Source: a virus (taxonomy: Duplodnaviria > Heunggongvirae > Uroviricota > Caudoviricetes). From it: a stretch of 17,392 nt of DNA. This document shows, piece by piece, positions 1 through 17,367 of this stretch. Made by a program: the position numbers and the translations under genes. Numbering within the stretch: the stretch's first letter is position 1; every line of letters begins with the position of its first letter. Below the pieces are notes generated by a model. It had not been told where the DNA came from, did not search any database, and worked only from the letters and a program-made list of their open reading frames with translations. The stretch lies in IMG/VR virus record IMGVR_UViG_2778261152_000002, positions 1 to 17,392 of that record; one strand, written 5' to 3'.

Positions 1-6
1 GAGGCA

Positions 7-222
7 TTATTCACCTCTCGCAGCCTTGCGCTTATCTTCTTTAATCTTGAAATAAAGGTTTGTCAGGTACGTCAGCAAGCCAAATACCAGACTACCCAGC
101 ACACCTATTGCCGCCCACTGTGAGGGCGTGACTTTATCGAGCAACTGTAAAAACCAGTACCCGGCACTACCTGCTGAGGTGCCATAGGCGACACCCGTTG
201 TTAACTTATCCATGGATTTCAT
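7..222 (-). CDS. S: Class II holin (pinholin), phage 21 S-like, with dual start
   Basis: 71 aa beginning MKSMDK (Met1 and Met4 give the antiholin/holin dual-start motif), two hydrophobic segments, charged C-terminus [16 protein letters not shown] at 220-222, SD GAGGTGG upstream, TAA at 7-9. Close to phage 21 S as recalled from memory. Confidence 0.85.
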
Positions 223-257
223 AACCCCACCTCGCAGATGCGGGTGCTGTGTAATGG

Positions 258-282
258 AAATAAAAAGGCCACCTACCTGGCC
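258..282 (-). terminator. Candidate intrinsic terminator between methyltransferase and holin
   Basis: Minus-strand RNA folds GGCCA-GGUAGG-UGGCC (plus coordinates 267-282) followed by UUUUUAUUU (plus A-run 258-266). Lies 6 nt after the methyltransferase stop. Confidence 0.35.
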
Positions 283-288
283 ACCAGA

Positions 289-1341
289 TTATTTCCCCAC
301 CAGCTCGTTTATCTCTTTCACTGTCTGGTTAAACCGCTCTGACTCAAGCTCAACACCTAAGGCCCGACGCCCCAGCGCCATTGCTGCTTTTATTGTGGAA
401 CCGGATCCCATAAAAAAATCAGCAACCAGATCACCAGGTCGACTACTGGCATTGATTATTTGCCGGAGCATATCCGCAGGTTTCTCACACGGATGTTTAC
501 CCGGGTAGAACTGAACGGGTTTATGCATCCAGACATCGGTATAAGGCACGGAGACTGATACGGAGAAATAGCGCCGGAGAGATTTAAACTCATCCAGCAA
601 TTCAGAATATTTGCGATTCAGTGAATCATAAGATGCCACCAGCTGGTGGTGTGGTTGTTCCAGTTGTTGTTCCTGAAACTTCTCTGCCGCTATACGGGAA
701 AACAGTGCCTGTAACTTCCGATAGTCAGCCTCATTCGGCAACTGCCACTGACTGGCACCAAACCAGTGGGAAACCATATTTTTCTTACCTGTGGCTTCGG
801 CAATTTGTTTTGCCGTTATACCCAGTTCGGCACGAGCATCCCTGAAATACGATATCAGCGGTGCCATTATGTGCTGTTTGAGTTCCCTTTCTTTTGCCGC
901 ATAGCAGTCACTTTTGCCGCGATATGGCCCCTGGTAATGTTCAGCAAACAGAACGCGCTCTGTGGCAGGAAAATATGCGCGCAGACTTTCTTTATTACAC
1001 CCATTCCAACGTCCGGACGGCTTCGCCCAGATGATATGGTTAAGCACGTTGAAACGTTCACGCATCATGATCTCAATATCAGATGCCAGGCGATGCCCAC
1101 AGAACAGGTAAAGGCTTCCGGCAGGCTTTAACACCCGCCAGAACTGGGCCAGACAGTGGTCCAGCCACTTAAGGTAATCTTCGTCCCCTTTCCACTGATT
1201 GTCCCAGCCGTTGGGTTTCACCTTGAAGTACGGCGGATCGGTAACAATCAGGTCAATGGAATCATCAGGCAGGGACTGAATAAAATGCAGGCAATCAGCG
1301 TTGATTAAATCAACACTGTTTATTTTTACAGTATTTTTCAT
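289..1341 (-). CDS. DNA methyltransferase, beta-class (DPPY before FxGSG), probably N6-adenine
   Basis: 350 aa. Motif IV DPPY near the N-terminus (IVTDPPYF), SAM-binding FFMGSGS near the C-terminus. ATG at 1339-1341, TAA at 289-291. Confidence 0.85.
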   Translation of the reverse strand: MKNTVKINSVDLINADCLHFIQSLPDDSIDLIVTDPPYFKVKPNGWDNQWKGDEDYLKWLDHCLAQFWRVLKPAGSLYLFCGHRLASDIEIMMRERFNVLNHIIWAKPSGRWNGCNKESLRAYFPATERVLFAEHYQGPYRGKSDCYAAKERELKQHIMAPLISYFRDARAELGITAKQIAEATGKKNMVSHWFGASQWQLPNEADYRKLQALFSRIAAEKFQEQQLEQPHHQLVASYDSLNRKYSELLDEFKSLRRYFSVSVSVPYTDVWMHKPVQFYPGKHPCEKPADMLRQIINASSRPGDLVADFFMGSGSTIKAAMALGRRALGVELESERFNQTVKEINELVGK

Positions 1342-1491
1342 GGATCAGTAAGCGTAACTCTGGTAGGCTCACTCTGCTTTTGCGCTAAAGCAGTGGGCCG
1401 TGGTTCGCTTGTGACCAGTAAGCATGAGCGAATGGCTGGCAGGTGCTACCAACACCCACCAGCCGCCCATTTTCACAGCAGGAAACCGCCA

Positions 1492-1719
1492 TTACTGGCA
1501 GCGTCTGAATTTATTCCCGTACCCGCCGTTATCCTTCGCCAGACCCGCCAGAACTAACTGAGTCAGTATTAACTGGCACCGGGCTTCGCTTACTCCGGTA
1601 GTTCTCGTCATCATGCGTGGCGTTACCCACTTGTCAGCAGGTAAGAAATGAAGGACTGCGGCGGCGGTTTCTGTCATATCTTGCTGTTTTAGCATGTCTT
1701 TTTCCCTTCTGGTTAACAT
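1492..1719 (-). CDS. Hypothetical small phage protein (possible winged-helix DNA-binding)
   Basis: 75-aa ORF with ATG at 1717-1719. An internal ATG at 1693-1695 (Met9) has a better SD (GAAGGGA) and may be the true start. No family recognised. Confidence 0.5.
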   Translation of the reverse strand: MLTRREKDMLKQQDMTETAAAVLHFLPADKWVTPRMMTRTTGVSEARCQLILTQLVLAGLAKDNGGYGNKFRRCQ

Positions 1720-1817
1720 GACATACCAATAACTCTTGTCTAAAAAGCCAGCAAGATAAAAAGTCAGTATTCACGACCACCAGCGTGTTTACTGTACTGC
1801 ACCAAGTTTACAGGTAC

Positions 1818-1840
1818 AAAAAAACCGCTCAGCGGCGGGT
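1818..1840 (-). terminator. Candidate intrinsic terminator (possible tR'-like element)
   Basis: Minus-strand RNA: G-CCGC-UGA-GCGG-U stem (4 GC pairs plus a G.U) followed by seven U (plus A-run 1818-1824). Short stem, so weak call. Confidence 0.3.
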
Positions 1841-1955
1841 TTAAGTTGTGTGGCGAAGTAACCACTCTTAACACGATACAATAGTTTTTGCGTACGCGTT
1901 AGTGGTTATGTAAACTTTCTCCATATAAAAACAGCAAAGAAGCGGATATTTTGAA

Positions 1956-2984
1956 ATGGCTACACTGGACGCATTCAGTAGAGTAATAACTCATCATACT
2001 ATTACGATCGATACACAATACCGTACACAGAAAATTGATGATAGCATCAGATCGAACTGTGTTTGCCCGGTACCAACAATGCGTGAACTTGCTTCTAAAA
2101 TAGTACGTTGTAAAGCAATGATGCACAGTTATGAAAAAGGAGACTTAGTTTTAACTTTGCAAGATGTAATCTTCTTATCAAACAGAGCCGATAAAAAACC
2201 CAGCCATCTTGGTCTTTTAATTAATGCTGTAGATAAAAATGGAAGCACTACTGTGTTAAAAAACATTAATACAGATGTTCGTACCGAAATATCACCAAAA
2301 CATGAGGAAGGTGAAGGTTACGAAGTTTCTTCTCATATGATTATTTCTCTAGACGGAAATATGCGAACCTATGACATGAGTTTTATGCCAATACCAGGAG
2401 TTTCCACAGCAAAAATAAATGGTTTCCTGAATAAAGTTCTCTTTAACGTAGCCAAAGATAATGAAGATATCTTTTCATGTAACACTTTAACAAATGAAGT
2501 ATCAAGTTTAACAAAGAAAAAAATAAAAGTATTATACAAGCCAGTCTTTGATATATCTGGAAAGTTAGATGAAGATTTGTTCAATAAAATAAATAAAGAA
2601 GGACTTTCTGATGTCGTTTTGGTAAAGAATGAATACAGAACTATTAATGCGCCAGATGTTAACGCGGCTATTATTCCTAAAGAAAGTACTTTACGCTTAG
2701 TACCAAACCATGGCCCCAACAATGTCCTTGGATGGATAAAATCTGTCTCAAACTTCTTTAAAGAAGATAAAAATGGAGGTTATGACTTAATAAAAATAAA
2801 ATTCAAAGAGCCAGAGACAGGATTCACAAGACAAGTTGACCTTCAAACTTCAAATGTAAGGCTCGATGGGCTGGAAAAAACATTTATCAAAAAGAGTGTA
2901 ATAAATGGTTTTTCTTCGCGCTTAAAGGATTCTTATGATAGTATTAACATGGAGTTTGTGAATAAGATTATCGAGGTCATGTGA
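1956..2984 (+). CDS. Hypothetical soluble protein, first gene of AT-rich two-gene cassette
   Basis: 342-aa ORF, ATG 1956, TGA 2982-2984. K/N/D/I-rich, no TM segments, no nucleotide-binding or catalytic motif I can recognise. Markedly lower G+C than flanking phage genes. Opposite strand to the surrounding late operon. Confidence 0.7.
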   Translation: MATLDAFSRVITHHTITIDTQYRTQKIDDSIRSNCVCPVPTMRELASKIVRCKAMMHSYEKGDLVLTLQDVIFLSNRADKKPSHLGLLINAVDKNGSTTVLKNINTDVRTEISPKHEEGEGYEVSSHMIISLDGNMRTYDMSFMPIPGVSTAKINGFLNKVLFNVAKDNEDIFSCNTLTNEVSSLTKKKIKVLYKPVFDISGKLDEDLFNKINKEGLSDVVLVKNEYRTINAPDVNAAIIPKESTLRLVPNHGPNNVLGWIKSVSNFFKEDKNGGYDLIKIKFKEPETGFTRQVDLQTSNVRLDGLEKTFIKKSVINGFSSRLKDSYDSINMEFVNKIIEVM

Positions 2985-2991
2985 GGCTAAT

Positions 2992-3567
2992 ATGATTAGT
3001 ATATTTTCACATTTATTTAGACCGTTTGGTTACCTTTTCATTAAGGGAATTAGTGGTAAGTGCGCATACGATTTTTATGCACCTGCCGGGCTTGCTGTGA
3101 TTTCTTTTTTTTACTTTTATTTATTTAAAATACCCACATCAGACCTACTAAAAGATGGCGGCTTTATTAAGTCTATATCTGGATTTGTATCAAATCTGCC
3201 AGGTTTTTATATAGCAGCTCTTGCAGCAATAGCCACTTTCAACAGAGAACAAATTGACTACCCTCTGATAGGAACTAATGGCACGCCTTTTATTAAAATT
3301 ACACGAACAAAAGAAAATGGTAGAATTGTTGACACTCAAGAGAAACTTACCAGAAGATTATTTCTGTGCATGTTATTTTCATTTTTAACTGCCCTCAGCA
3401 TATGCATAGTGATTTTCAACGCTTTTATCACACCACTAATAAACATACTGAATAATGATATAGCAAACTGGTGCTATATCATTATCTTTTTATTCCTTAC
3501 ATGGCAAATGCTTGTTTCAACATTTTTTGGACTATACTATCTTGGTGATAGGATTCACATTAATTAA
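2992..3567 (+). CDS. Hypothetical integral membrane protein (about 4 TM helices), second gene of cassette
   Basis: 191 aa. ATG 2992 is 7 nt after the upstream stop, with SD GAGG overlapping that stop (translational coupling). Four hydrophobic stretches (about residues 22-45, 62-85, 125-150, 160-185) separated by a charged loop. Confidence 0.7.
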   Translation: MISIFSHLFRPFGYLFIKGISGKCAYDFYAPAGLAVISFFYFYLFKIPTSDLLKDGGFIKSISGFVSNLPGFYIAALAAIATFNREQIDYPLIGTNGTPFIKITRTKENGRIVDTQEKLTRRLFLCMLFSFLTALSICIVIFNAFITPLINILNNDIANWCYIIIFLFLTWQMLVSTFFGLYYLGDRIHIN

Positions 3568-3922
3568 CTACCATAATGGGGTTTATAGTTATTATTACAC
3601 CGCTGATAAACCCCATGGCAGTCTGCAATTCCTTCCTAATTGTGCCATCTGAACATCTTCTCTTCTTGGCAATAGTGCGTAATGAGATACCAATAACAAA
3701 GTGAGCTATGATCAGCTCATATTCCTCTGGTTTATACTTTCGCAACCGAGCCACACAACCGTCTATCATGATGCCTTCATCATCATCACACTGGAGACGT
3801 GACTTTTTACCGTGTGGTAAAAGTCCCTTGAAACCAGCCGCTATCGGCTGCCAGTCCACACCACTATTTTCTGCTGCAGCCCATGCTCCCCAGCGGTCCA
3901 ATACTTCATACATATCACGCAT
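3560..3922 (-). CDS. Late-gene antitermination protein Q (small Q family, QuuD-like)
   Basis: Protein MRDMYEVLDRWGAWAAA...IAAGFKGL...SRLQCDDDEG...CSDG matches the about 125-aa Q-like antiterminator pattern as recalled. The track start at 3937 is TTG; ATG at 3920-3922 with SD GGAGA is preferred. Confidence 0.7.
   Translation of the reverse strand: MRDMYEVLDRWGAWAAAENSGVDWQPIAAGFKGLLPHGKKSRLQCDDDEGIMIDGCVARLRKYKPEEYELIIAHFVIGISLRTIAKKRRCSDGTIRKELQTAMGFISGVIITINPIMVVN
3576..3616. repeat. Perfect 11-bp inverted repeat ATGGGGTTTAT / ATAAACCCCAT with 19-bp spacer
   Basis: Read directly: 3576-3586 and 3606-3616 are exact reverse complements. Sits at the 3' junction of the cassette, inside the C-terminal codons of Q. 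Confidence 0.6.
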
Positions 3923-3939
3923 CAACTTTCTCCACAAAA

Positions 3940-4935
3940 TCAGGCCAGCACGCCAATTGCCAGCGCACGATCGATAAAACGAAATATCAGCTCCAGCTGG
4001 GAGCCATACTTCTCTTCAAATGCCACGGTATCCGCATGCAGCTCGTCGTGATGCTTTCTGCACAAAGGCAACACAAAAAGGTCATGCGCTTTTGTTCCCA
4101 TTCCACCCTGACCGTGACCTATCAGGTGGTGGGGATCATCAGCGGGCTTTCCACAACATGCACACGGCTGTGTCTTAACCCAGCGCGTGTACTTTTCATT
4201 AACCCAGCGGCGACGTTTTGGGCGTAACATAAAAGACTCCGGCGACTCCGGATCCACTTTCAGCGCCAGCACCTTTTTCGCTTTATCCTGGATGATACTG
4301 GTGGCAGGAACCGAAGGCACAAGGTCACTTTCCCGGGTGACAGACGGCACAACAGGCTTCGGTAATCTCAGTGCCTTACGGGCTGCACTTTCCGGTAAGG
4401 CATCCGCCAGGTCATTACGAACCAGCCACCAGCACAGTTCCGGCATTGTCACAACGTGACTGTCATCAAAACCGAGATCCCGACGCACGACAGACAACAC
4501 CCAGCGGGCACAGTTATCCGTTGCCATTGATTCCAGCCGTTCCGTGAATTGATCGCGCAGCTGGTTATCGCAGTGCCAGCACAGACGGATTGCGCCCGGA
4601 GCATGTCGCATTGTGGTCATGTTCTCGCTGTGCCAGTCGGAATGAGGCCACTGACAGCCTTTTTCACGAAGTAACCAGCTTTCAAGACATTCCACGCCAC
4701 CAGCACGACGGATCACTGCCTCATTACGGAACACGGCCCGAACGGCAGGATCATCCGCCAGTGGTTGTGATGCCGCCGGAACGGCACCACTGGCAAAAGA
4801 TGAATAACGTTCCGGCTCAGGCTCCAGCAGGACACGCCCCTGCATAAACAGGGGCATCAGCTCTGAACCAGGCCTGAACAATACGATCCCCATACGCGGG
4901 GCAATTTCAGGGGTCAGTAGTGCTCTCACGATCAC
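3940..4935 (-). CDS. DUF968-like phage protein with C-terminal HNH/zinc-finger-like motif
   Basis: 331-aa ORF (GTG start at 4935, 1 nt after the upstream stop). C-terminus CACCGKPADDPHHLIGHGQGG...LPLCRKHHDELH has paired Cys and His-His typical of HNH-like folds. DUF968 assignment is from memory of Qin prophage YdfU-like proteins. Confidence 0.65.
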   Translation of the reverse strand: MIVRALLTPEIAPRMGIVLFRPGSELMPLFMQGRVLLEPEPERYSSFASGAVPAASQPLADDPAVRAVFRNEAVIRRAGGVECLESWLLREKGCQWPHSDWHSENMTTMRHAPGAIRLCWHCDNQLRDQFTERLESMATDNCARWVLSVVRRDLGFDDSHVVTMPELCWWLVRNDLADALPESAARKALRLPKPVVPSVTRESDLVPSVPATSIIQDKAKKVLALKVDPESPESFMLRPKRRRWVNEKYTRWVKTQPCACCGKPADDPHHLIGHGQGGMGTKAHDLFVLPLCRKHHDELHADTVAFEEKYGSQLELIFRFIDRALAIGVLA

Positions 4936-4936
4936 C

Positions 4937-5746
4937 TCAATGAACGGTATCGAGCAGCTTTAACAGCTCAGGGAATCGGGATTCGAAGAAATGCGGCTGC
5001 GTCTCGCGCGGATTTGCAGGACTGGTGATGTTCTTGCCGAACATGCAGCCTTTCGCCGTCAGCGACCAGAATTTTTTGATGTTGTTAATCGCGGTACGGC
5101 TGTATCGTTCGCGTTGTTCAACGATCCCCAGCTTCACCATCTGGTGATATGCCTGATTAGCCGTCAGGCGGATACCATACTGTTTCAGCAGTGCACTCAG
5201 TGACAGCGTGGGACGGCTTGAGCCATCAGTCGCGTCAGCAGGAGCATCAATGGCATAGCGCGGTGCCAGATTCGGTAAGCCAACAGCCTCCTGGAGTTTC
5301 TGACAGGCACCAAGCACTGAAGAGTTAGACAGGTTTAATTCCCGGCGCATAAAGTCCAGCAGAATCACGCCAGCCTGCATCTTGTCAGCAGCCTGTCCGG
5401 ATAACTTTTCCGGCGCGCTGGTTACCATATCGAAAGTACGGATCACCTTCAGATGGAATGACGGGCTGATCCACATTGCATAGGCATACACCAGTTCCTT
5501 ACAGACATACGTTCCCCGTTCATTTCCCCCATGAATCACACTCACCGGGTCAACACCCAAATTCTGGGTGTTGATTAATTCATGAACAAGATCAACAGTT
5601 TGTTGGCTGGAAAGAAACTTTCCTGGCTCCTTGGTTCTGGCATTTGCACCAGATGCTACTGCTGCGCGATGCAGATCGTTCAGGCTGTAACGCTCATAAG
5701 CATCACGACGAACTTCAATACCATCAATGACCATCAGATTATTCAT
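4937..5746 (-). CDS. KilA-N domain protein (antirepressor-like)
   Basis: 269 aa. N-terminus MVIDGIEVRRDAYERYSLNDLHRAA fits the KilA-N pattern. ATG 5744-5746 with SD AGGAGA 8 nt upstream. Confidence 0.7.
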   Translation of the reverse strand: MNNLMVIDGIEVRRDAYERYSLNDLHRAAVASGANARTKEPGKFLSSQQTVDLVHELINTQNLGVDPVSVIHGGNERGTYVCKELVYAYAMWISPSFHLKVIRTFDMVTSAPEKLSGQAADKMQAGVILLDFMRRELNLSNSSVLGACQKLQEAVGLPNLAPRYAIDAPADATDGSSRPTLSLSALLKQYGIRLTANQAYHQMVKLGIVEQRERYSRTAINNIKKFWSLTAKGCMFGKNITSPANPRETQPHFFESRFPELLKLLDTVH

Positions 5747-5765
5747 ACTTCGTTTCTCCTCTTAA

Positions 5766-6155
5766 TCAGGCAGCTGCACCCGCCGTTTTCTCGTACTTAC
5801 TGATAGTGATCTCGACCTTCCCTTCCGGGATAACCGGTCCCCACTCCACCAGCATTCTTTTCACCTGACTGTCGTCTTCCCACACCCCCGCGTGGGTCAG
5901 GGCGTCAAACAGCGCCTTGTTATAGTTGTCCAGATCGCGGATCCTGTTATCCGGAGGAAACAACACGATCTCCACTGAAGCAGGTGCCGACGTTGGTTTC
6001 GGCAGACGACGTAACTGCTCAACTATTGCTGCGCACGCCGCGCTCTGGAATTTTCGCCCCGCCGCGCTTATCAGGCTCTTACCAGCAAACGCCCCTTTGT
6101 TGGGGTGTCGCCAGTACGTGTTCACGCTGGGCGGAAAAGGCAGGATCAGCTTCAT
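5766..6155 (-). CDS. rusA: Holliday junction resolvase RusA
   Basis: 129 aa with PPSVNTYWRH and RDLDNYNKALFDALTHAGVWEDDSQV, matching the RusA catalytic region. ATGA overlap with the upstream gene. Confidence 0.85.
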   Translation of the reverse strand: MKLILPFPPSVNTYWRHPNKGAFAGKSLISAAGRKFQSAACAAIVEQLRRLPKPTSAPASVEIVLFPPDNRIRDLDNYNKALFDALTHAGVWEDDSQVKRMLVEWGPVIPEGKVEITISKYEKTAGAAA

Positions 6156-6478
6156 ACTTTCAGGCCCCTCTCATGTAACCAGTGGGTTGCACGCAGCCTT
6201 GCGTTTTCCTCACCGGCAAGCAGTGAGCGGATAATCCCGACCGCCTCGCTGTCGTCGTCCTTCACCGCGGTATGAAGCGTGATGCCCCGGGCCACGCCAC
6301 GCTTTATCGTGATGACGCCTTTTTTCTCCAGTGCGCGAAGATGCTCCACCGCTGCATTCACTGAACGGTATCCCAGCATGGTTGCCACCTCCTGATTGGT
6401 TGGCGGGAAGCCACGTTCTTTCTGATAAGAAATCAGCATATCCAGCACCTGCTGCTGGCATTGAGTTAACGTCGTCAT
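6152..6478 (-). CDS. LexA-type winged-helix DNA-binding protein (no peptidase domain)
   Basis: 108 aa. N-terminus LTQCQQQVLDMLISYQKERGFPPTNQEVATMLGYRSVNAAVEHLRALEKKGVI closely parallels the LexA N-terminal DNA-binding domain. SD AGGGAGA, ATG 6476-6478. Confidence 0.6.
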   Translation of the reverse strand: MTTLTQCQQQVLDMLISYQKERGFPPTNQEVATMLGYRSVNAAVEHLRALEKKGVITIKRGVARGITLHTAVKDDDSEAVGIIRSLLAGEENARLRATHWLHERGLKV

Positions 6479-7161
6479 GCCGCCATCTCCCTGACCAGTT
6501 TTTCTGCCTGCTGGCGAACCTGCGCCAGAAAGGCCTCACCACATGCCTCAAGTTCATAGCGCCCGATGTAGCTGATTGCCGGTCCCTTCCAGGTCTTGTC
6601 GAAAACAGCAATAGCACCAGCGAAGAAAGCGCCTGTCGGCACCTGCTTCTCATCCTTCGGGATAAACCAGGCAGGCAGTTCAAAACCAATACGCCCGCGA
6701 ATAAAAGCAATATGATCTGCATCTTCCGGCCACCACACTTCGCTGGTGGCAGCTTTGATCAGGAAAACATAGCGCCCGCCTTTATCACGCATGGCACTGG
6801 CATGCTTCATGATGTAACGCATGCCGGTGATGTATTGCCCCTCATGCTGACTGGCGCGGCTGTATGGGGGATTACCAAAGGCAGCACCTTTAAGCTCCGC
6901 AAGGCATTCTGACCAGTCATGCGCCAGCGCGTTGTCTTCCGCCGTGTAATACGCAGCACATTTGGCGTTATCACCGTCAGTAAACAGATCCAGAACAAAC
7001 GGGCCAAACAGAGTGTTAATTCCCCAGAAAATGTTGTCCGGCGTGCGCCACTGATCGCCCACTTCCTTCAGTTCATGGGCTGGTTTGTTCCGCAGTTCCG
7101 CCAGCGCCTGGCAATATTTATTACTCATTAAGCCCCCACGTAATTCCCTGAGAGATACCAC
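6475..7161 (-). CDS. Phage Dam-like N6-adenine DNA methyltransferase
   Basis: FGNPPYS (NPPY) motif. The track start at 7161 is GTG; ATG at 7126-7128 overlaps the upstream TAA by 1 nt (TAATG) and is the likelier start, giving 217 aa. Confidence 0.75.
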   Translation of the reverse strand: MVSLRELRGGLMSNKYCQALAELRNKPAHELKEVGDQWRTPDNIFWGINTLFGPFVLDLFTDGDNAKCAAYYTAEDNALAHDWSECLAELKGAAFGNPPYSRASQHEGQYITGMRYIMKHASAMRDKGGRYVFLIKAATSEVWWPEDADHIAFIRGRIGFELPAWFIPKDEKQVPTGAFFAGAIAVFDKTWKGPAISYIGRYELEACGEAFLAQVRQQAEKLVREMAA

Positions 7162-7616
7162 TCTTCACCTGATGCAGCCCGCTTACTGCTTTTCCGTAAA
7201 CACCGTTCACGACGCGCCAGAAAATTGTTTCGTTCTGGCTGGGAGTGGCTTTCACGGAATGCCGCCATCCACACCGTTGCAGCACGACGGTATAAGCCCC
7301 TGGACTCCAGTTCTTCCGCCTGGCGGGTCAGGCACAAAATCACCCGCGGGTCGTTAGTGCCGACATAGAAATTGCGCACAGGTCTGGTTTCACGAACTGG
7401 TTGTGGTTCCGGATCCTGCGCTCTCTCAGTCAGGCGCGGGAAATGTCTGTGTGTATCTCCTTCACAACGGTGAGCCACACGCCCACTCTGACGTAACTTG
7501 CTTGCTGACTGCAGAACGCGCTGCCGTGAGTAACCTGCAAAAGCATCCGCAATGTCTCCGGAAGTACAGCCCGGATGGGCTTCAATGAATTTCTGAACGT
7601 CATTCAAAAGACTCAT
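7128..7616 (-). CDS. Hypothetical regulator with PerC-like C-terminal motif
   Basis: ORF to 7622 starts with GTG; ATG at 7614-7616 with SD GGGGTG is preferred. C-terminal LESRGLYRRAATVWMAAF...RRERC resembles the PerC-family signature as recalled. Confidence 0.5.
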   Translation of the reverse strand: MSLLNDVQKFIEAHPGCTSGDIADAFAGYSRQRVLQSASKLRQSGRVAHRCEGDTHRHFPRLTERAQDPEPQPVRETRPVRNFYVGTNDPRVILCLTRQAEELESRGLYRRAATVWMAAFRESHSQPERNNFLARRERCLRKSSKRAASGEEWYLSGNYVGA

Positions 7617-7618
7617 GA

Positions 7619-8560
7619 TCACCCCCTGAATCCTGCCGGGATCTGGCTGTAGTCCACGTTGTCGTAACTGGCTTTGAAGTACGGGTCTTCACGTTTTTCT
7701 GTGTGCGTGCTGACGGACGGCGATAAGCGCAGGGAAAGCTCATCCCATTTTTCCCGCAACTTCGACGGGCTGAGCACGTTACGGCACCAGAACGGATCGC
7801 GGCTGACGCGGCTGTACATCTCGCAGATTTGTTTGTGAGTACGACCATCCTGCACACACATCAGGCGAATTTCGTTTGCCCATGCTGTCCAGTTCGGTTC
7901 TTTGGGACGAACCACCTCGCCGTCACATTCGGCGGCCTGCTCGTACAGGGCAATGATTTTTTTCCAGAGCCACTGTGCGCAGGTCAAATCATCCTGCGTT
8001 CCCCACTGGCGCTTTTTAGGGCTGAATACAACCGCATCAGGATGGCGAGTTAAAAAATCCTGTTCAGCCGTCTGCGTGTCCGGTTGCGAAGCGTCCGGAC
8101 GAGAAGGTTTTTTATCTGACGGATCATGTTTTGATTTTACTGACGGATCCCCGCCAGATTCTGACGGGTGAAAACCCGCTTTTTTGCCAGATTTCGACGC
8201 ATCAAATTTTGACGGGTCAGATTTTGATGCGTCAGATTTTGACGGGTCAGAATCTGACAGTTGAGAAAATGCCGCTGCCTGAAGCTTCGCAACGTTAAGC
8301 TGATAAACATTCGACGCATTGCGGTTACCCTGGCGACGCGCCTTACGCGTTAACCAGCCTTCTGCTTCCAGCCGTGCGATAGCCGTCCTGACGGTACTCA
8401 TCCCCGCGCCAATCTGACGGGCAATAGTTTCAATTGATGGCCAGCACACACCTTCGTCATTACTGAAATCAGCCAGGCGGGCCATAATTGCCACGCTGGA
8501 TAATTTCATGCCTGATGCAGCGCAACCATCCCATACATAGCCGGTTAATTTAGTGCTCAT
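7619..8560 (-). CDS. Replication initiator (O-like): N-terminal HTH, iteron-encoded linker, DnaT-like C-terminal domain
   Basis: 313 aa. N-terminal winged-helix-like segment, central pentapeptide repeats (DPSKS DASKS DPSKF DASKS) encoded by the 15-bp DNA repeats, C-terminus ending ...YSQIPAGFRG like the C-terminus of primosomal protein DnaT (recalled). ATG 8558-8560 with SD GAGG. Confidence 0.8.
   Translation of the reverse strand: MSTKLTGYVWDGCAASGMKLSSVAIMARLADFSNDEGVCWPSIETIARQIGAGMSTVRTAIARLEAEGWLTRKARRQGNRNASNVYQLNVAKLQAAAFSQLSDSDPSKSDASKSDPSKFDASKSGKKAGFHPSESGGDPSVKSKHDPSDKKPSRPDASQPDTQTAEQDFLTRHPDAVVFSPKKRQWGTQDDLTCAQWLWKKIIALYEQAAECDGEVVRPKEPNWTAWANEIRLMCVQDGRTHKQICEMYSRVSRDPFWCRNVLSPSKLREKWDELSLRLSPSVSTHTEKREDPYFKASYDNVDYSQIPAGFRG
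8114..8260. repeat. Iteron array (candidate replication origin) inside the initiator gene
   Basis: At least five tandem 15-bp units (CCAGATTTCGACGCA, TCAAATTTTGACGGG, TCAGATTTTGATGCG, TCAGATTTTGACGGG, TCAGAATCTGACAG) at 8187-8260, plus degenerate copies at 8114-8170. Analogous to lambda ori inside gene O. Confidence 0.6.
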
Positions 8561-8569
8561 GACCGACCT

Positions 8570-8908
8570 CTATTTCCCTGAATTTACGACGAAACTGTTC
8601 GAGCGGGCTGAAGCACTCATGCTCATAGCCTTCGCGGAGGTAGATAACTCGTTGTGTTTCCGGCTCCCAACGAATGACTCTGACGGGCACTCCGTAGTGA
8701 TCTTTGAACCAGCGGTTAACTTGTCGCAAAGGACTGTCTCCTTCTGCCGGTTGAAATCACCCACAGCCCACTCAGCAAAGCTGTGGGTTACAATTTCCCT
8801 GTCACCTGGTACATTAACTGCATAGCAATACTCCACCTTCGCTTTTCCACCCGGTACAGGAAGCGCAATCAGTTGCGAGCGACGGTAGTGTGTTGTTAAA
8901 CTGTTCAT
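8570..8908 (-). CDS. Hypothetical phage protein between cII-like gene and initiator; possible frameshift
   Basis: ATG 8906-8908 overlaps the upstream stop. The N-terminal 53 aa look protein-like; the rest of this frame is Ser-rich and low complexity, while an alternative frame open from about 8746 to a TAA at 8550-8552 encodes a more protein-like tail. Confidence 0.45.
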
Positions 8909-9513
8909 GCGTTAGTTTCTCCACAGTCACGACACGCCACGGCGCCCGGAGCTGCACACTCGCGGGCGTCATTACTTTCTGAAATGCAAAAGATTTTGTA
9001 GACCAGTGCTGCATGCTCCTGCAGCTTCGAAATTGAGAGATACAGCTCGTCGTTAATTGCTGTCTTCTCATGCGGTTCCACCACACCGTCTTCGATTGCC
9101 GAACGAATCTGTCTGGAATAACTGCCAATTTGTTCAATGACTTCCAGCAGGCGCTGGTTAATATCGGCGTTGTCCACATCCTCGACGTCAGGAAGAGACA
9201 CAAAGACGCCATTTGCAGACTGCGCCACAGCGTCAGCAATGAAGTGAGTTCCACCAGCACGTTGCAAAATCATTGCCCATCCCAGCGGGAAAATCTGATC
9301 GCCATCGGCACGAAGGCGGTTAAATAATGCGTTTTCTGTTACATCCAGCCAGTCAGCTGCTTCAGCGTAACCACCCGGCAACGCTGCGATAGTTTTTCTG
9401 ACAGCTTTCACGTACCACTCAGGCTGTTTTTCTACTTTCCAGTGATGCTTACCCACGGTTAGCCTCATCGTTCTGTGGTTTCTGTTAATCGATTTATCCA
9501 TTAGATTTTTCAT
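8905..9513 (-). CDS. cII-position regulatory protein (CII/CP76- or YdaT-like), start uncertain
   Basis: ORF is open from a GTG at 9570; candidate ATG starts at 9513, 9501 and 9468, none with a strong SD. C-terminus has a C-x7-C-x7-C-x2-C cluster. Function inferred mainly from position downstream of cro. Confidence 0.5.
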
Positions 9514-9694
9514 AAAGCTCAGGTTTAAATGGCAACCGTCCGCAAGTTCTATATGCAGCTTCTGCTGCACGTCCTTTTGGAATTAACTGGCCCGGACGGT
9601 TTCGCCACTGATAAACGGCTTCAGTTGTTATGCCGAAAAAAGCAGCAACTTTCTCAATACTGCCGAAGTAGCTTTCGATATCGTCAGTTGTCAT
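9494..9694 (-). CDS. cro: Cro-like HTH repressor
   Basis: 66 aa, divergent from cI. HTH-like segment AAFFGITTEAVYQWRN. ATG 9692-9694 with SD GGAGG. Confidence 0.7.
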   Translation of the reverse strand: MTTDDIESYFGSIEKVAAFFGITTEAVYQWRNRPGQLIPKGRAAEAAYRTCGRLPFKPELYEKSNG

Positions 9695-9791
9695 ACGCCC
9701 TCCAAGCTAAGTTTTATTAGATGCTAATTACAAATCTATCTTTGGTCAATAAAAACTAAGATTACTTAGCAATTAAAGAAATGGTGCTCCT
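9695..9791. promoter_or_regulatory. Divergent cro/cI operator-promoter region
   Basis: 97-bp AT-rich interval between divergent cro and cI. Near-palindrome CTAAG-ATTA-CTTAG at 9756-9769 and CTAAG at 9707-9711 with partial inverted partners. Confidence 0.5.
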
Positions 9792-10418
9792 ATGGAAACG
9801 GTTGGTCAGCGTATAAAAGCTCTGAGAAGAGTTACCGGAACGTCCCAGAAAGAATTGGGTAAATTTTGTGGAGTAAGCGACGTTGCTGTGGGGTACTGGG
9901 AGAAAGACATCAATACCCCTGGTGGGGAAGCACTTTCGAAATTAGCGAAGTTCTTCAATACGTCAATAGATTACATTCTTTATGGTGCTGAGTTTGAAGG
10001 CAAACTCGTCACAAACATGCGCAGAGTTCCTGTAATATCGTGGGTTCAGGCTGGGCAGTTTACTGAGTGCAGGGCAGCAGAAGTGTTTAGTGAAGTGGAC
10101 AAGTGGGTAGATACATCATTAAAGATTGGTGATAACTCATTTGCATTAGAGGTTAAAGGTGACTCCATGACTAACCCTAATGGCCTCCCAACAATACCAG
10201 AAGGCGCAACAGTGATTGTAGATCCAGATGCAGAACCTCGTCATGGAAAAATAGTCATCGCTCGACTTGATGGAACAAACGAAGCTACAGTAAAAAAATT
10301 AGTCATCGATGGCCCTCAAAAGTTTTTAGTGCCATTAAATCCTCGGTATCCCAACATCCCTATCAATGGTAATTGCCTTATCATTGGTGTAGTCAAAGGA
10401 GTTCAATACGAACTCTAA
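9792..10418 (+). CDS. cI: CI-type prophage repressor (XRE HTH plus S24 LexA-like peptidase)
   Basis: 208 aa. N-terminal HTH (QKELGKFCGVSDVAVGYWEKD), Ala-Gly cleavage site in VQAGQF, catalytic Ser in GDSM and Lys in ATVKKL. Confidence 0.9.
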   Translation: METVGQRIKALRRVTGTSQKELGKFCGVSDVAVGYWEKDINTPGGEALSKLAKFFNTSIDYILYGAEFEGKLVTNMRRVPVISWVQAGQFTECRAAEVFSEVDKWVDTSLKIGDNSFALEVKGDSMTNPNGLPTIPEGATVIVDPDAEPRHGKIVIARLDGTNEATVKKLVIDGPQKFLVPLNPRYPNIPINGNCLIIGVVKGVQYEL

Positions 10419-10580
10419 GACCTCTCTTCTCTAACTAAGGCACCGAACTAAGAAAAGTTTGGTGTTTTCTCTTGCCACAATAACTAAGTTAAGTTAGATT
10501 TTATATCAAAGATAACGAACAGGCAGGACGCCCACGAAGTAGCCGCCTGGGGCATATGAAGTCCAGGATGATTCGTTAGC

Positions 10581-10606
10581 AACAAAAAAGCGCCCTACAG
10601 GACGCT
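10581..10606 (-). terminator. Candidate intrinsic terminator (minus-strand transcripts)
   Basis: Minus-strand RNA: AGCGUCC-UGUA-GGGCGCU (7-bp stem including one G.U) followed by UUUUUUGUU. The plus-strand version has a C-A mismatch and a poor U tract. Confidence 0.4.
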
Positions 10607-10665
10607 TAGCTCTTTAACAATCTGGTCCCCATCAACAAGTAACTGATAACTTGAGGAGATGTGAA

Positions 10666-10872
10666 ATGCACAAAACAGAACCCAAAATCGTCGCGCCTGG
10701 CTACACAGATGAGGAAATTTATGAGTGGATGACAAAGAAGCTGGCAGCTATAAACCAGCTTCGTGAAGTGCTGTCTTATCGACAGGAAACAATAGACTCC
10801 TTAAAAAAACTGGATCAGGAAATCACGGTTTTATCACAGGATGTTACTTTAGATATTGTGCAGACAAATTAG
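10666..10872 (+). CDS. Hypothetical small coiled-coil protein (immunity-region insert)
   Basis: The track ORF starts at a TTG at 10651; ATG at 10666 with strong SD GAGGAG is preferred, giving 68 aa. Heptad-like charged/hydrophobic pattern. Its 3' end overlaps the convergent 144-aa gene by 29 nt. Confidence 0.45.
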   Translation: MHKTEPKIVAPGYTDEEIYEWMTKKLAAINQLREVLSYRQETIDSLKKLDQEITVLSQDVTLDIVQTN

Positions 10873-11278
10873 GATCCCATTCATTTTCGTCAAAATCATC
10901 AAAGTGATGAATTTGTGATCTCCAGTCTCGATAATCTAAAAATTTCTGGGCGGTTACGCTTATTTTATCAAGTGTGAGTTCATCCTGAATTGAAAGAAGA
11001 AGTTCATCAAATTTCATCTCATTAATCTGTTTTGGCATCCAGTGATGCTTCATCAGAATAAGGTGAACCAGAGCCTTTTTCCCATTCAACTGATTATAGG
11101 GAGTGCCGAATTTCTTCCGGTGCTCATGTAAGACAAGGTCCAAAAGAGTAAGTAATGTTGCCCTTGATTCAACTTTGCTTATTTCGACTGATGACACTAC
11201 CCCACTGATTTCAATGCCCCGATACTTTCCAACATTTTCACAGTGGGATTTGTACAGCGTATAGATATTACCGGACAT
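10844..11278 (-). CDS. Hypothetical 144-aa protein in the immunity region (rex/sieB position)
   Basis: ATG 11276-11278 with SD AAAGGAAAAG. AT-rich gene. No TM segments. Contains R-x6-H (RDWRSQIH), too degenerate to call a HEPN domain. Confidence 0.55.
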   Translation of the reverse strand: MSGNIYTLYKSHCENVGKYRGIEISGVVSSVEISKVESRATLLTLLDLVLHEHRKKFGTPYNQLNGKKALVHLILMKHHWMPKQINEMKFDELLLSIQDELTLDKISVTAQKFLDYRDWRSQIHHFDDFDENEWDPNLSAQYLK

Positions 11279-11430
11279 TTCTTTTCCTTTTGCGTTGTTG
11301 GGGATAACCAGATTAACCGAATCCTTGTTGTTGGGGAATAACTAGGTCCACCTCGCCTGATGTGGCTAAAAGCAGGCACATAACAGCTAAGTATTTTCAA
11401 CCAGAGAGAATCCTTAGCGTTGTGGTGAAT
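11279..11430. promoter_or_regulatory. Candidate OL/PL-type control region
   Basis: Position between the immunity insert and the early-left genes. Direct repeats GTTGTTGGGGATAAC (11294-11308) and GTTGTTGGGGAATAAC (11327-11342). CTAAG (11387-11391) and CTTAG (11413-11417) form an inverted pair. No confident -35/-10 identified. Confidence 0.3.
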
Positions 11431-11564
11431 GCGGCTCAGCGCACGCGGGTTAAGGTTGAGGCTGACAGTCGACCTTCTGTGGATACCCACCCGCCTGGTG
11501 TGCAACCTTCGCCAGGCACCGGGAGGCACCCGGCACCACAACTTTATGCTGTGTGTAGTCTTGG

Positions 11565-11609
11565 CGGTACCAGCTTGTACCCTTGCTTCCGGCTGGTACC
11601 GTCCTTTTT
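11565..11609 (+). terminator. Candidate intrinsic terminator in the early-left leader
   Basis: Plus-strand hairpin CGGTACCAGC (11565-11574) / GCTGGTACCG (11592-11601), 10-bp stem with 17-nt loop, then TCC and TTTTT (11605-11609). Confidence 0.35.
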
Positions 11610-11746
11610 ACAAAACAGAGAAGAGCATCACCGGACGACGGGCTCATAACCCAATCCATCCGGGCGGCAGTCACCGCAGGTGTTCTTCTCTGTTTTGTGG
11701 AGAAACTAACCGACCTTGCAGGGTCGATATGATGAGGAGCAGCAAA

Positions 11747-12109
11747 ATGGCTAGCGAACGCAGTACTGATGTGCAGGCATTTATCGGGGAGCTGGACGGC
11801 GGCGTATTTGAAACCAAAATCGGCGCAGTTCTCAGTGAAGTCGCTTCCGGTGTGATGAACACGAAAACCAAAGGTAAGGTCTCGCTCAACCTGGAAATCG
11901 AACCGTTTGATGAGAACCGAGTGAAAATCAAACACAAACTCTCATATGTTCGCCCGACTAACCGCGGGAAAATTTCCGAAGAAGACACCACCGAAACGCC
12001 GATGTATGTCAATCGCGGTGGTCGCCTGACTATTCTGCAGGAAGACCAGGGACAGTTACTGACTCTTGCCGGTGAACCTGACGGAAAACTCCGCGCAGCA
12101 GGTCGTTAA
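11747..12109 (+). CDS. Hypothetical early protein, YfdP-like (120 aa)
   Basis: The track ORF from 11429 has a Pro/Arg-rich, improbable N-terminus; ATG at 11747 with SD GAGGAG gives a 120-aa product. YfdP-like call rests on size and on neighbourhood with the YfdQ/R/S/T-like genes. Confidence 0.6.
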   Translation: MASERSTDVQAFIGELDGGVFETKIGAVLSEVASGVMNTKTKGKVSLNLEIEPFDENRVKIKHKLSYVRPTNRGKISEEDTTETPMYVNRGGRLTILQEDQGQLLTLAGEPDGKLRAAGR

Positions 12110-12174
12110 TATCGTTTTTAATTAACTGATTATTTATCTCATCACTGAATATCTTTATATAGTGAGGACTTATT

Positions 12175-12999
12175 ATGTCTCAGAACTTAGACGCAACCGC
12201 AATTAATCAAATCCATGCCCTTATTTCTGCTCAGGGTGTTAATGAAATTATCAGTAAGATTGGTGCCGATGCTGTGGCATTGCCTGAGAATTTCCGCATT
12301 CATGATCTGGAAAAATTTAATTTAAATCGCTTCCGTTTCCGTGGTGCGCTTTCCACTGCCAGCATCGATGACTTTACCCGTTATTCTAAAGATCTTGCAG
12401 ATGAAGGCACCCGCTGCTTTATCGATGCTGATAATATGCGTGCCGTCAGTGTGCTTAACCTGGGTACTATTGATGAACCAGGTCACGCAGATAACACCGC
12501 CACACTCAAACTGAAAAAGACAGCACCGTTCTCTGCTCTGTTGTCTGTTAACGGCGAGCGTAACTCCCAGAAGTCACTAGCAGAATGGATTGAAGACTGG
12601 GCCGACTATCTTGTGGGCTTTGATGCTAATGGTGACGCTATTCAGGCAACAAAAGCGGCTGCGGCTGTCCGTAAAATCACGATTGAAGCAAACCAGACCG
12701 CTGATTTTGAAGATAATGACTTCAGCGGCAAACGCTCCCTGATGGAGTCTGTCGAAGCGAAGACCAAAGACATTATGCCAGTGGCATTTGAATTTAAATG
12801 CGTTCCGTTTGAAGGTCTGAAAGAACGTCCGTTTAAATTACGCCTCAGTATTATCACTGGCGATCGTCCTGTACTGGTTCTGCGCATTATTCAGCTGGAG
12901 GCGGTGCAGGAAGAAATGGCTAACGAATTTCGTGATCTGCTTGTTGAGAAATTCAAGGACAGCAAAGTAGAAACCTTTATTGGTACTTTCACCGCCTGA
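12175..12999 (+). CDS. yfdQ: YfdQ-like protein (DUF2303 family as recalled)
   Basis: 274-aa ORF with SD GTGAGGA. Length and position match E. coli YfdQ; family assignment is from memory. Confidence 0.7.
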
Positions 13000-13126
13000 T
13001 TTCATTACTGCAAATGCCCCTGCGGGGGCATTTATGGAAACGTAATTTACTCAATAATCGCCGGATGGTGAGGGATTCTTTTTGCCAGAATTCAGCGCGG
13101 TGCAGCGCATATACGTGGAGAACAAA

Positions 13127-13663
13127 ATGTCATTTATTAAAACTTTTTCCGGGAAGCATTTTTATTATGACAGGATAAATAAAGACGACATCGATATTAA
13201 CGATATCGCGGTTTCCCTTTCAAATATCTGTCGCTTTGCCGGTCATCTTTCGCACTTCTACAGCGTCGCCCAACATGCGGTTCTTTGCAGCCAGCTGGTG
13301 CCGCAGGAATTTGCTTTTGAAGCGTTAATGCATGATGCAACAGAAGCGTATTGCCAGGACATTCCCGCACCACTGAAACGCCTTCTTCCTGACTATAAAC
13401 AAATGGAAGAAAAAATAGACGCCGTAATCCGTGAGAAATACGGGTTACCCCCAGTTATGAGTACGCCCGTGAAATATGCCGATCTCATCATGCTGGCAAC
13501 CGAACGCCGCGATCTCGGGCTTGATGATGGCTCTTTCTGGCCTGTACTGGAAGGTATCCCGGCAACAGAGATGTTCAACGTGATTCCACTGGCACCGGGC
13601 CATGCCTACGGGATGTTTATGGAACGCTTTAACGAGTTATCGGAGTTACGCAAATGCGCATGA
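13127..13663 (+). CDS. yfdR: HD-domain phosphohydrolase, YfdR-like
   Basis: The track start at 13082 is TTG; ATG at 13127 with SD GGAGA gives 178 aa. Metal-binding signature H...HD present (VAQHAV ... ALMHDATEAY). Confidence 0.8.
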   Translation: MSFIKTFSGKHFYYDRINKDDIDINDIAVSLSNICRFAGHLSHFYSVAQHAVLCSQLVPQEFAFEALMHDATEAYCQDIPAPLKRLLPDYKQMEEKIDAVIREKYGLPPVMSTPVKYADLIMLATERRDLGLDDGSFWPVLEGIPATEMFNVIPLAPGHAYGMFMERFNELSELRKCA

Positions 13664-14016
13664 ATGTTTTCGAAATGGAAGGGTTTCTTCGTGGGAGATG
13701 TGTACCGCGAGATCTGAAAGTAAATGAAACAGATGCTGAATACCTGGTGCGTAAATTCGATGCGCTTGAAGCTAAATGTGCAGCACAGGAAAACAAAGTA
13801 ATACCAGTGTCAACTGAACTGCCACCAGCAAATGAAAGTGTTTTGTTATTCGATGCTAACGGAGAAGGCTGGCTAATTGGCTGGCGTTCTCTCTGGTACA
13901 CCTGGGGACAAAAAGAAACCGGAGAATGGCAGTGGACATTTCAGGTCGGGGACCTTGAAAACGTCAATATCACTCACTGGGCAGTAATGCCAAAAGCACC
14001 GGAGGCTGGAGCATAA
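13654..14016 (+). CDS. DUF551-like protein (YfdS-like)
   Basis: 120 aa. Trp-rich C-terminal half ending ITHWAVMPKAPE, reminiscent of DUF551. Overlaps upstream stop; stop overlaps next start (TAATG). Confidence 0.6.
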   Translation: MRMNVFEMEGFLRGRCVPRDLKVNETDAEYLVRKFDALEAKCAAQENKVIPVSTELPPANESVLLFDANGEGWLIGWRSLWYTWGQKETGEWQWTFQVGDLENVNITHWAVMPKAPEAGA

Positions 14017-14321
14017 TGACCACTTTTACCGACAAAGAACTGATTAAAGAAATTAAAGAGCGTATCAGCAGCCTTGACGTGCGAGACGATATTGAGCGCC
14101 GTGCTTATGAAATCGCACTCCTATCTCTGGAAGTAGAACCAGATGAACGCGAAGCTTATGAATTATTCATGGAAAAGCGTTTCGGTGACTTAGTAGATCG
14201 TCGGAGAGCAAAAAACGGCGATAACGAATACATGGCATGGGATATGACTCTCGGTTGGATCGTCTGGCAGCAACGAGCTGGTATCCATTTTTCAACAATG
14301 TCACAGCAAGAGGTGAAATAA
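14016..14321 (+). CDS. Hypothetical early protein (YfdT-like, 101 aa)
   Basis: 101-aa ORF, SD GGAGG, TAATG overlaps with both neighbours. No motif recognised. Confidence 0.55.
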   Translation: MTTFTDKELIKEIKERISSLDVRDDIERRAYEIALLSLEVEPDEREAYELFMEKRFGDLVDRRRAKNGDNEYMAWDMTLGWIVWQQRAGIHFSTMSQQEVK

Positions 14322-14671
14322 TGGAGCCATACAGCCTCACACTCGATGAGGCCTGTCATTTTCTCAAGATATCCAGACCGACTGCCATTAACTGGATACG
14401 CACAGGGCGTCTTCAGGCAACACGCAAAGATCCCACTAAGAATAAATCTCCTTACCTCACAACACGACAAGCCTGCATTGCGGCTCTTCAGTCTCCGCTG
14501 CATACTGTCCAGGTGAGCGCGGGTGATGGCATAACAGAGGAAAGAAAATGTCACTCTTCCGCAGAGGTGAAATATGGTACGCCAGTTTCACATTGCCGAA
14601 CGGTAAAAGATTTAAACAGTCTCTTGGAACAAAGGACAAAAGGCAGGCGACAGAACTCCATGACAAGCTAA
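14321..14671 (+). CDS. xis: Excisionase (Xis), P22-like
   Basis: ATG 14321 with SD AGAGGTG gives 116 aa. N-terminal HTH-like segment [26 protein letters not shown]. Sits immediately upstream of int. The 3' end overlaps int by about 120 nt in another frame, so the true stop is uncertain. Confidence 0.55.
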
Positions 14672-15711: not shown

Positions 15712-15725
15712 CTTATTGATTTAAA

Positions 15726-15772
15726 TGGTGCCGATAATAGGAGTCGAACCTACGACCTTCGCATTACGAATC
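15726..15772 (-). other. attP core: 47-nt 3' fragment of tRNA-Thr (anticodon loop to CCA end)
   Basis: Reverse complement reads GATTCGTAATGCGAAGGTCGTAGGTTCGACTCCTATTATCGGCACCA: anticodon loop with CGU, T-arm GGTTCGACTCC, 3' CCA. Similarity to the tRNA breaks 5' of the anticodon stem, so this is not a complete tRNA. Matches thrW as recalled. Confidence 0.75.
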
Positions 15773-16061
15773 TGTAGCACCAATCATAACTATCTGTTTT
15801 AGCAAGCATTAACCGCATTCACTAAGCTATAGTTGATGGCACAAACAGAAAGTTGATGCATGATGTTGTCATGTATATGTCACAAATACGGCACAACGAT
15901 CTTCAAACATGTAGCCACACATCCACAGAAGAGCACAAAGCCTTGCAATCAAGTGCAAAGCTTTGTGTACCAGAGTTTTTCCTCATCAACTAACACAAGT
16001 ATCGATCGATTGAGACTTGGATGATAGACTTCATGCCTTTCAGAACTCATTGATTACATAA

Positions 16062-17344: not shown

Positions 17345-17367
17345 AAAAACAAAAAACCCCGAATACC

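Follow-up and report, generated by a model that had tools for sequence, protein, structure and literature searches.

The question raised by this locus is where late transcription begins. The window, that is, the whole stretch of DNA analyzed (17,392 nt; positions 1 to 17,392 of the Caudoviricetes record IMGVR_UViG_2778261152_000002 of IMG/VR), carries on its minus strand, the direction of late transcription, the late regulatory gene Q and the first lysis gene, a holin gene, with 3,337 bp from the stop of Q to the start of the holin gene. A cassette on the opposite strand, a gene for a 75-aa protein and a methyltransferase gene lie between them. A first-pass annotation of this DNA regarded the layout as unusual, noted two candidate terminators and no obvious late promoter, and supposed that the promoter might lie at 1850-1950, divergent from that of the cassette. 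The genes and the two hairpins that it listed are all present, at or near where it had placed them. In the present analysis we found that the locus is probably a late switch of the Q21/Q933W family, in which inserted cargo seems to have moved Q and its promoter, pR', to a distance of 1.69 kb from each other. The parts of the predicted switch are as follows.

3560-3922, minus strand: Q gene, 120 aa, a member of PF06530 (Q21/Q933W family; Pfam E-value 2.8e-45, 113 of 118 model positions)
1902-1866 (approximate), minus strand: predicted pR' unit, by homology to the pR' of Shiga toxin (Stx) phages mapped by differential RNA sequencing (dRNA-seq)
1902-1885, minus strand: clade-A element CTAACGCGTACGCAAAAA, with the palindrome GCGTACGC, candidate Q-binding element
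1878-1873, minus strand: predicted -10 hexamer TATCGT, in register with TATCAT of the Stx-phage pR'
1869-1858, minus strand: conserved box AAGAGTGGTTAC, which spans the predicted start, A1866, as its fourth base
1836-1824 (stem) and 1823-1817 (U7), minus strand: first hairpin, the equivalent of tR', at about +31 to +50
258-282, minus strand: second hairpin, immediately before the holin gene (stem 282-267, followed by TTTTTATTT)
7-222, minus strand: holin gene of the S21 type (pinholin), the first lysis gene (PF04971, phage 21 S holin, E-value 2e-35)

The late promoter can be identified by homology, which predicts its -10 hexamer and a start near A1866. Window positions 1902-1813 are homologous to the unit found just after Q in Stx phages of the 933W/Sakai type, and hundreds of Stx phages carry, 20-100 bp after Q, a segment to which positions 1878-1813 are about 83% identical. 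The annotation of phage phi345 has a promoter (TTTACG-16-TATCAT) and a terminator in the matching segment. In the Sakai Stx phages, the pR' start, mapped by dRNA-seq, lies 258 nt before the 3' end that Term-seq gave for the StxS precursor (PMC7547250). If this distance is measured backwards from the last U of the tract belonging to the second Sakai hairpin, the start falls on the A of AAGAGTGG, 7 nt after TATCAT, and this A is the fourth base of AAGAGTGGTTAC. In the window, this 12-mer box occurs once without mismatch. The -10 hexamer is preceded, after an 18-nt spacer, by a weak -35 (CTAACG, 3/6), which is overlapped by the clade-A element. By homology, then, a sigma-70 pR' lies upstream of the late genes, and the -10, the start and the element all fall within 1850-1950, where the promoter had been supposed to be. 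The remark that no late promoter was obvious holds for a strict sigma-70 consensus scan, which gave no minus-strand match of at least 9/12 in 1842-1955, and fails once homologous phages are considered; the consensus scan is too strict for the pR' of the window. Two overlapping -10-like hexamers, TATTGT and TATCGT, lie 5 nt apart at 1873-1883 on the minus strand, and the upstream one (TATTGT) is found in 34 of 46 distinct clade-A promoters.

Comparison of 14 Q proteins gave three clades, A (that of the window), B and C, with identities of 81-99%, 72-85% and 76-96% within them, respectively, and 40-58% between them. The promoters of all three clades share the -10 and the transcribed box, the latter being identical or near-identical across them, and at about -37 to -20 each clade has an element of its own: CTAACGCGTACGCAAAAA in clade A, a motif containing GCGGTCCGC in clade B and TTTACG(A/T)(T/A)CGTAAAAA in clade C. 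Thus, the element at 1902-1885 covaries perfectly with the three Q clades. In a survey of 85 clade-A loci (80 viral contigs, the window and four phages), the motif ACGCGTACGCAAAA was present downstream of Q in 77, and the other eight were mostly contigs cut short after Q. Among these 77 loci, with 57 distinct promoter segments, the element is near-invariant even where the transcribed box has diverged, and TAnnnT is present at the fixed -10 offset in all 46 distinct clade-A promoter segments. The element, -10 and box of the window match the clade-A consensus exactly. A Q-binding element would be expected to behave in this way, and we regard the clade-specific element as a putative one. The Q residues that differ most between the clades lie around positions 75-100; this part of Q may be the DNA-binding region, which would fit the different DNA specificities.

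The points at which related phages regain homology to the window also bear on the position of the promoter. Phages with the Q allele of the window regain it at 1916, and those with other short PF06530 Q alleles at 1873. In SfV, Ayreon and 720R4, which have a lambda-type Q of 250 aa (PF03589), homology to the window starts precisely where the first hairpin has its foot, at 1841, and within about 100 bp after Q these phages have a promoter of another kind (TTGCAT-17-TAAGAT) with the pause sequence AACGATGGG. Since the homology of the phages with a lambda-type Q begins at 1841, the promoter travels with Q, and the terminator and the late genes form a shared module. The Q of the window has no match to PF03589, and the lambda-like promoter present in SfV and 720R4 is absent from the window.

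One may ask whether the promoter lies immediately downstream of Q, as in lambda. It would then be located inside the 3' end of the cassette (about 3450-3560), and the late transcript would run antisense through the cassette. A scan did find two minus-strand promoter-like sites there, at 3507-3478 (TTGCCA-18-AATGAT) and at 3482-3455, and Q-modified polymerase could span the distance. However, these sites are in DNA of 30% GC, where such matches are at chance level (10 found, 8.5 expected). Phages of the same Q clade have no common sequence downstream of the Q stop but carry unrelated DNA beside Q, and their homology to the window breaks off at 3618, still within Q; therefore, no conserved promoter adjoins Q. 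Furthermore, the element specific to the clade and the segment homologous to the mapped pR' sit at 1902-1866, not beside Q. We thus consider a Q-adjacent late promoter extremely unlikely, and the predicted pR' at 1902-1866 is the promoter referred to below.

Is the separation of Q from this promoter unusual, as the first-pass annotation had it? Among contigs with enough sequence downstream of Q (the 77 of clade A include the window and the four phages), Q adjoins its promoter in none of 225 (77 of clade A, 77 of clade B and 71 DLP12-like).

Clade A: Q and pR' split in 77 of 77; gap of 626-2,965 bp (median 1,634); 24 cargo types; largest open reading frame (ORF) of the gap on the opposite strand in 77 of 77
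Clade B: split in 77 of 77; gap of 693-2,731 bp; 23 cargo types; largest gap ORF on the opposite strand in 73 of 77
Clade C, DLP12-like subset: split in 71 of 71; gap of about 1,640 bp (up to 2,352); one cargo type, a porin gene; largest gap ORF on the opposite strand in 71 of 71

The split layout is also present in the viable isolated phages 434B, cdtI, 569R4, mEp460_4F5 and PhiR40_1 and in the Stx phages Stx1_499 and Stx2a_1447, and that of 434B supports lytic growth (PMC9119081). The exceptions found are the 933W-type phages, in which the promoter overlaps the Q stop, and Stx2d_112808, in which the box lies 41 bp after Q. The exact arrangement with the cargo of the window was found in 3 of 5,426 complete E. 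coli genomes. Separation of Q and pR' is thus the rule for this Q family and not an oddity, so the layout cannot be called unusual; the window has an ordinary late switch of the Q21/Q933W family, of the DLP12/434B type, which is an already known regulatory kind.

Both hairpins lie between the predicted start and the holin gene, so that the two terminators are on the late path, as had been proposed. The stem of the first occupies +31 to +43, and the U run that follows extends to +50; an intrinsic terminator, with a weak stem, is found between pR' and the late genes. A pattern scan of positions 1-4500 gave 12 terminator-like sites, against 3.9 +/- 1.8 in shuffled sequences. Related phages have retained both hairpins, which the annotations of SfV and Ayreon list as terminators, and we take them as real because of this conservation and not because of their folding energy. 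A hairpin with a U run lies within 95 nt of the predicted start in 100 of 118 distinct transcribed segments of clades A and B, with 68 different hairpin sequences and a median stability of -11.5 kcal/mol; since the stems differ so much, the terminator is kept by function and not merely by descent. The first stem of the window (GAGCGG, where most relatives have GAGCGGG) has one G fewer in its 3' arm and is among the weakest. All eight relatives examined keep the second hairpin; in the window, where the variant of this stem has GGCCAG, the stem is made shorter by a C-to-G substitution in the 5' arm.

These weak stems raise the possibility that the switch has decayed, Q or pR' being non-functional in the prophage and the region a remnant kept for its cargo. 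The weak -35, the hairpins weaker than those of the relatives, the rarity of the exact arrangement in complete E. coli genomes and the split gene 1 in two contigs with the same cargo (see below) would agree with such a state. However, Q is full length across the Pfam model, the promoter element, -10 and box match the clade consensus exactly, and the weak GAGCGG form of the first hairpin is shared with the isolated phages 569R4, mEp460_4F5 and PhiR40_1. Decay is possible, but nothing beyond the weak hairpins supports it, and we regard it as very unlikely.

The second hairpin, directly upstream of the holin gene, would block entry into the lysis genes if it were not read through. The lysis genes might instead have a Q-independent promoter of their own near the holin gene, with pR' mainly serving the 75-aa ORF and the methyltransferase gene; a review of DLP12 cites control of the lysis operon by RpoE and Hha (PMC7918800). 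However, only 66 bp separate the stop of the methyltransferase gene from the start of the holin gene, most of it hairpin and ribosome-binding site, and a scan for sigma-70 matches, the class that it covered among sigma factors, found none there. The junction between the methyltransferase and holin genes is kept in phages with different holins, and the regulatory region cited for DLP12 has a long leader (-121 to +650), which is consistent with a distant start of the pR' type. A holin-proximal promoter as the source of lysis gene expression is thus very unlikely indeed, and Q-dependent transcription from pR' is preferred.

Several observations weigh against a late switch built on pR' and these two hairpins. 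The consensus score of pR' is about 7/12 with a poor -35, so that the scan missed it, and the position of its start is a prediction carried over from transcripts of other phages and not from those of this phage itself. The candidate Q-binding element was identified by covariation. A clear TAnnnT pause element is not seen after the start: TACTTC at +7 to +12 comes closest but does not end in T, and 933W has TACATT at this place. The beginning of the transcribed region (the box AAGAGTGGTTAC) may hold a sigma-dependent pause element. Both hairpins are weak (-5.7 to -6.3 kcal/mol for the first, with z -1.2 at -6.3; -9.3 kcal/mol for the second, z -0.45) and indistinguishable from shuffled sequences. 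In Sakai, even the stronger form of the first hairpin is not fully efficient, as transcripts pass it and end at +258 (PMC7547250); the first hairpin of the window is therefore probably leaky. Furthermore, nothing in the window before the 75-aa ORF corresponds to the +258 terminator.

The Q gene was reported by the ORF finder as 3560-3937, extended to a TTG at 3937. Its relatives begin at an ATG equivalent to 3922 (MRDMYEV in the window; all start with MRD), and for this reason the real gene is probably 3560-3922. The identity of the product is 81-91% to Q of 569R4, Stx1_499, Stx2a_1447 and Klebsiella P7641, and its match to the solved Q21 structures (6P18 and 6JNX) is weak and distant (E-value 0.0045). 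The other features of the region are the following.

289-1341, minus strand: N6/N4 DNA methyltransferase gene (PF01555, E-value 2.3e-42)
1492-1719, minus strand: small ORF of 75 aa (annotated as 65-75 aa in relatives), phrog_331
1888-1916, plus strand: predicted cargo promoter, -35 TTGCGT at 1888-1893, 17-nt spacer, -10 TAAACT at 1911-1916, start at about 1923
1956-2984, plus strand: cargo gene 1, 342 aa (PADLOC PDC-M53A, E-value 1.3e-31; phrog_9879)
2992-3567, plus strand: cargo gene 2, 191 aa (PADLOC PDC-M53B, E-value 1.7e-54; phrog_8257)

The 75-aa ORF, which gave no match in Pfam and NCBIfam searches, is the first gene after pR' and is kept in SfV, Ayreon, cdtI and Stx2 phages. The methyltransferase matches NCBIfam adenine methyltransferase models below their cut-offs. 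Upstream of Q, on the minus strand, are genes for DUF968/HNH (3940-4935), KilA-N (4937-5746) and RusA (5766-6155) proteins, a typical equivalent of the lambdoid nin region. A tRNA scan of the window found none (Stx phages and phage 21 carry tRNA genes downstream of pR'). A search of positions 1-4200 against Rfam at a permissive E-value gave no family at threshold; the matches to STnc130 (26 bits, threshold 55) and Vault (19.6 bits, threshold 34) are below threshold and were dismissed as chance.

The two cargo genes, 8 bp apart on one strand, have full-length matches to PDC-M53A and PDC-M53B in PADLOC, and the cassette is a candidate anti-phage defence system, PDC-M53; PDC systems are themselves predictions. 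Neither protein has a match in Pfam or NCBIfam, and we found no paper naming this system in the literature. The product of gene 2 has hydrophobic C-terminal segments (hydropathy windows at residues 121-155 and 157-182). Diverged copies of gene 1 (74% and 58% identical), intact and in the same position, are present in contigs L051 and L097. In two IMG/VR contigs with the same cargo (L018 and L019), gene 1 is split into ORFs of 189 aa and 135 aa and is apparently a pseudogene.

The GC content of the cassette ORFs is 0.26-0.38, against about 0.5 in the flanks, and the stop of gene 2 overlaps that of Q by 8 nt. No direct or inverted repeats were found at the cassette borders, and there is therefore no sign of transposition; recombinational exchange in the flanking Q and pR' modules, with a junction inside Q at 3618, fits better. 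The C-terminal tails of Q vary in sequence and length (113-126 aa for the proteins), and the DNA homology ends about 19 codons before the stop (3560-3618); it seems that the end of Q moves together with the cargo. At 3452-3485, within the 3' end of cargo gene 2, there is a perfect inverted repeat (14 bp, with a loop of 6 nt) that is terminator-like on both strands; it is located about 80 nt short of the stop of this gene and about 75 nt beyond that of Q. It might stop transcription leaving Q, or it might be incidental.

The predicted promoter of the cassette is back to back with pR', so that the divergence of the two, as first proposed, is supported at the level of prediction. Its -35, TTGCGT, is part of the clade-A element, and the spacing recurs despite different cargo: of 47 distinct cargo-strand segments of clade A, 34 have TTGCGT followed by TAnnnT after exactly 17 nt, with each other spacing at 9% or less. 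In clade B, a fixed -10-like hexamer is found 14 bp further out in 37 of 58 segments.

By analogy with the known mechanism of the family, RNA polymerase would start constitutively at pR'. In the absence of Q, it would stop, at least partly, at the hairpin and U7 of +31 to +50, and polymerase that leaks through would be halted at the second hairpin before the holin gene. Q made from the early transcript would bind the clade-specific element and load onto the promoter-proximal polymerase, and the Q-loaded polymerase would read through both hairpins, the 75-aa ORF and the methyltransferase gene into the lysis genes; such Q-dependent read-through is proposed on the basis of the same analogy. The PDC-M53 cassette would be a separate unit, transcribed away from pR' from 1888-1916 and converging on the 3' end of Q. 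In lysogens, some transcription from pR' may reach the 75-aa ORF and the methyltransferase gene, the second hairpin being then the last barrier before the holin gene, and the weaker hairpins could permit lysogenic expression of the methyltransferase from a constitutive pR'.

In 154 contigs of clades A and B, the gap between Q and pR' contains 47 cargo types, nearly always on the opposite strand, and the two clades have no cargo type in common. The cargo includes Kiwa KwaA/KwaB, PifA, QatA-like, PD-Lambda-5, TIR-TM, PDC-S20 and PDC-S42 genes, as well as genes for proteins with KAP NTPase, GmrSD, RelA/SpoT, HEPN and NYN domains and for many proteins without a match. This variety of defence genes argues that the gap (1917-3559 in the window; loci L018-L178) is, as judged from its predicted gene content, a hypervariable defence hotspot. 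A literature search for a described Q-proximal defence hotspot returned nothing relevant, which is not proof that the hotspot is unpublished. A more far-reaching proposal, which is possible and in our opinion doubtful, is that the gap is a dedicated, undescribed defence hotspot of lambdoid phages with a Q21/Q933W-type Q, where antisense cargo is placed behind a fixed resident promoter beside the Q-binding element, and where Q binding and the early transcript leaving Q switch the cargo off at the commitment to lysis. That Q binding or converging early transcription would shut the cargo off is speculation by analogy.

Thus, the late switch of the prophage works, as far as can be predicted, like the textbook system of Q, pR' and tR', and the promoter that seemed to be missing was found by homology. 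Annotation pipelines and readers that look for pR' beside Q will put it in the wrong place throughout this large family of Q proteins, to which Stx1 and Stx2 phages, with their toxin expressed from pR', also belong. The interval separating Q from pR' is also a rich and easily located place to mine for new anti-phage systems. The defence hotspot with its fixed cargo promoter is a more interesting by-product than the late switch itself, and the position of this promoter beside the putative Q-binding element suggests that the lysis decision may be linked to a shut-off of defence.

Comparison with known systems places the window among several partial relatives. Phage 21, for which the geometry was taken from the curated GenBank record, likewise has a PF06530 Q, a Q-binding element (QBE) within the -35/-10 region and a terminator whose end is near +50; its QBE fills the spacer between -35 and -10, and a pause element follows the start. 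However, Q21 has 162 aa and is only distantly similar to the Q of the window, and the QBE of phage 21 (ATTGAGCA AATGAGCA) is a direct repeat unrelated in sequence to the palindromic element of the window. Furthermore, pR'21 starts 7 bp after the Q stop, compared with 1.69 kb in the window, and has a perfect -35 and a poor -10, whereas the reverse is true of the window.

In the Stx phages (933W, Sakai Sp5/Sp15), the -10, the box AAGAGTGGTTAC and the first hairpin are homologous to those of the window (about 83% over 66 nt), and the identity of the 933W-type Q to that of the window is 41-46%. The 933W-type phages have TTTACGATCGTAAAAA as their upstream element, and their promoter overlaps the stop codon of Q. 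StxS, a 258-nt pR' transcript with an Hfq-binding 3' part of 74 nt, is defined by a second terminator, at +258 (PMC7547250). The homology of the window ends at 1813, so that the similarity to Stx phages covers only 1878-1813, about the first 50 nt, and does not extend to the 3' part of StxS. Another candidate for the identity of the short pR' transcript is HnrS, a prophage sRNA of 66 nt. The 933W-type phages keep a remnant of the methyltransferase gene, which is intact in the window; in the 933W-like phi345 (L009, 994-1092), the +258 terminator is followed by a remnant of 33 codons with the annotation DNA methyltransferase. From this it seems that deletion of the small ORF and of most of the methyltransferase gene, both present in the window, gave rise to the compact layout of 933W.

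DLP12 and 434B (quuD, nmpC on the opposite strand, pR', essD) resemble the window in having a short PF06530 Q and opposite-strand cargo, followed by a pR' unit with the same box and hairpin and then an S21-type holin gene; they differ in the Q clade (42-43% identity), the upstream element, the porin cargo and the lack of the methyltransferase module. SfV and Ayreon are like the window from the first hairpin onward (small ORF, methyltransferase gene and second terminator, with 91-99% identity) and differ in having the lambda-type Q, an adjacent lambda-like pR' with the AACGATGGG pause and no cargo. In the Tai/Ati "noncontiguous operon" of phage phi80, the defence gene is oriented against the flow of lytic transcription, and expression of Q lowers its level (PMC11364771). 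However, the late operon of phi80 encloses the defence gene, and the late transcript runs across it, whereas in the window the cargo is located upstream of pR', where the early transcript leaving Q would be the only one to cross it.

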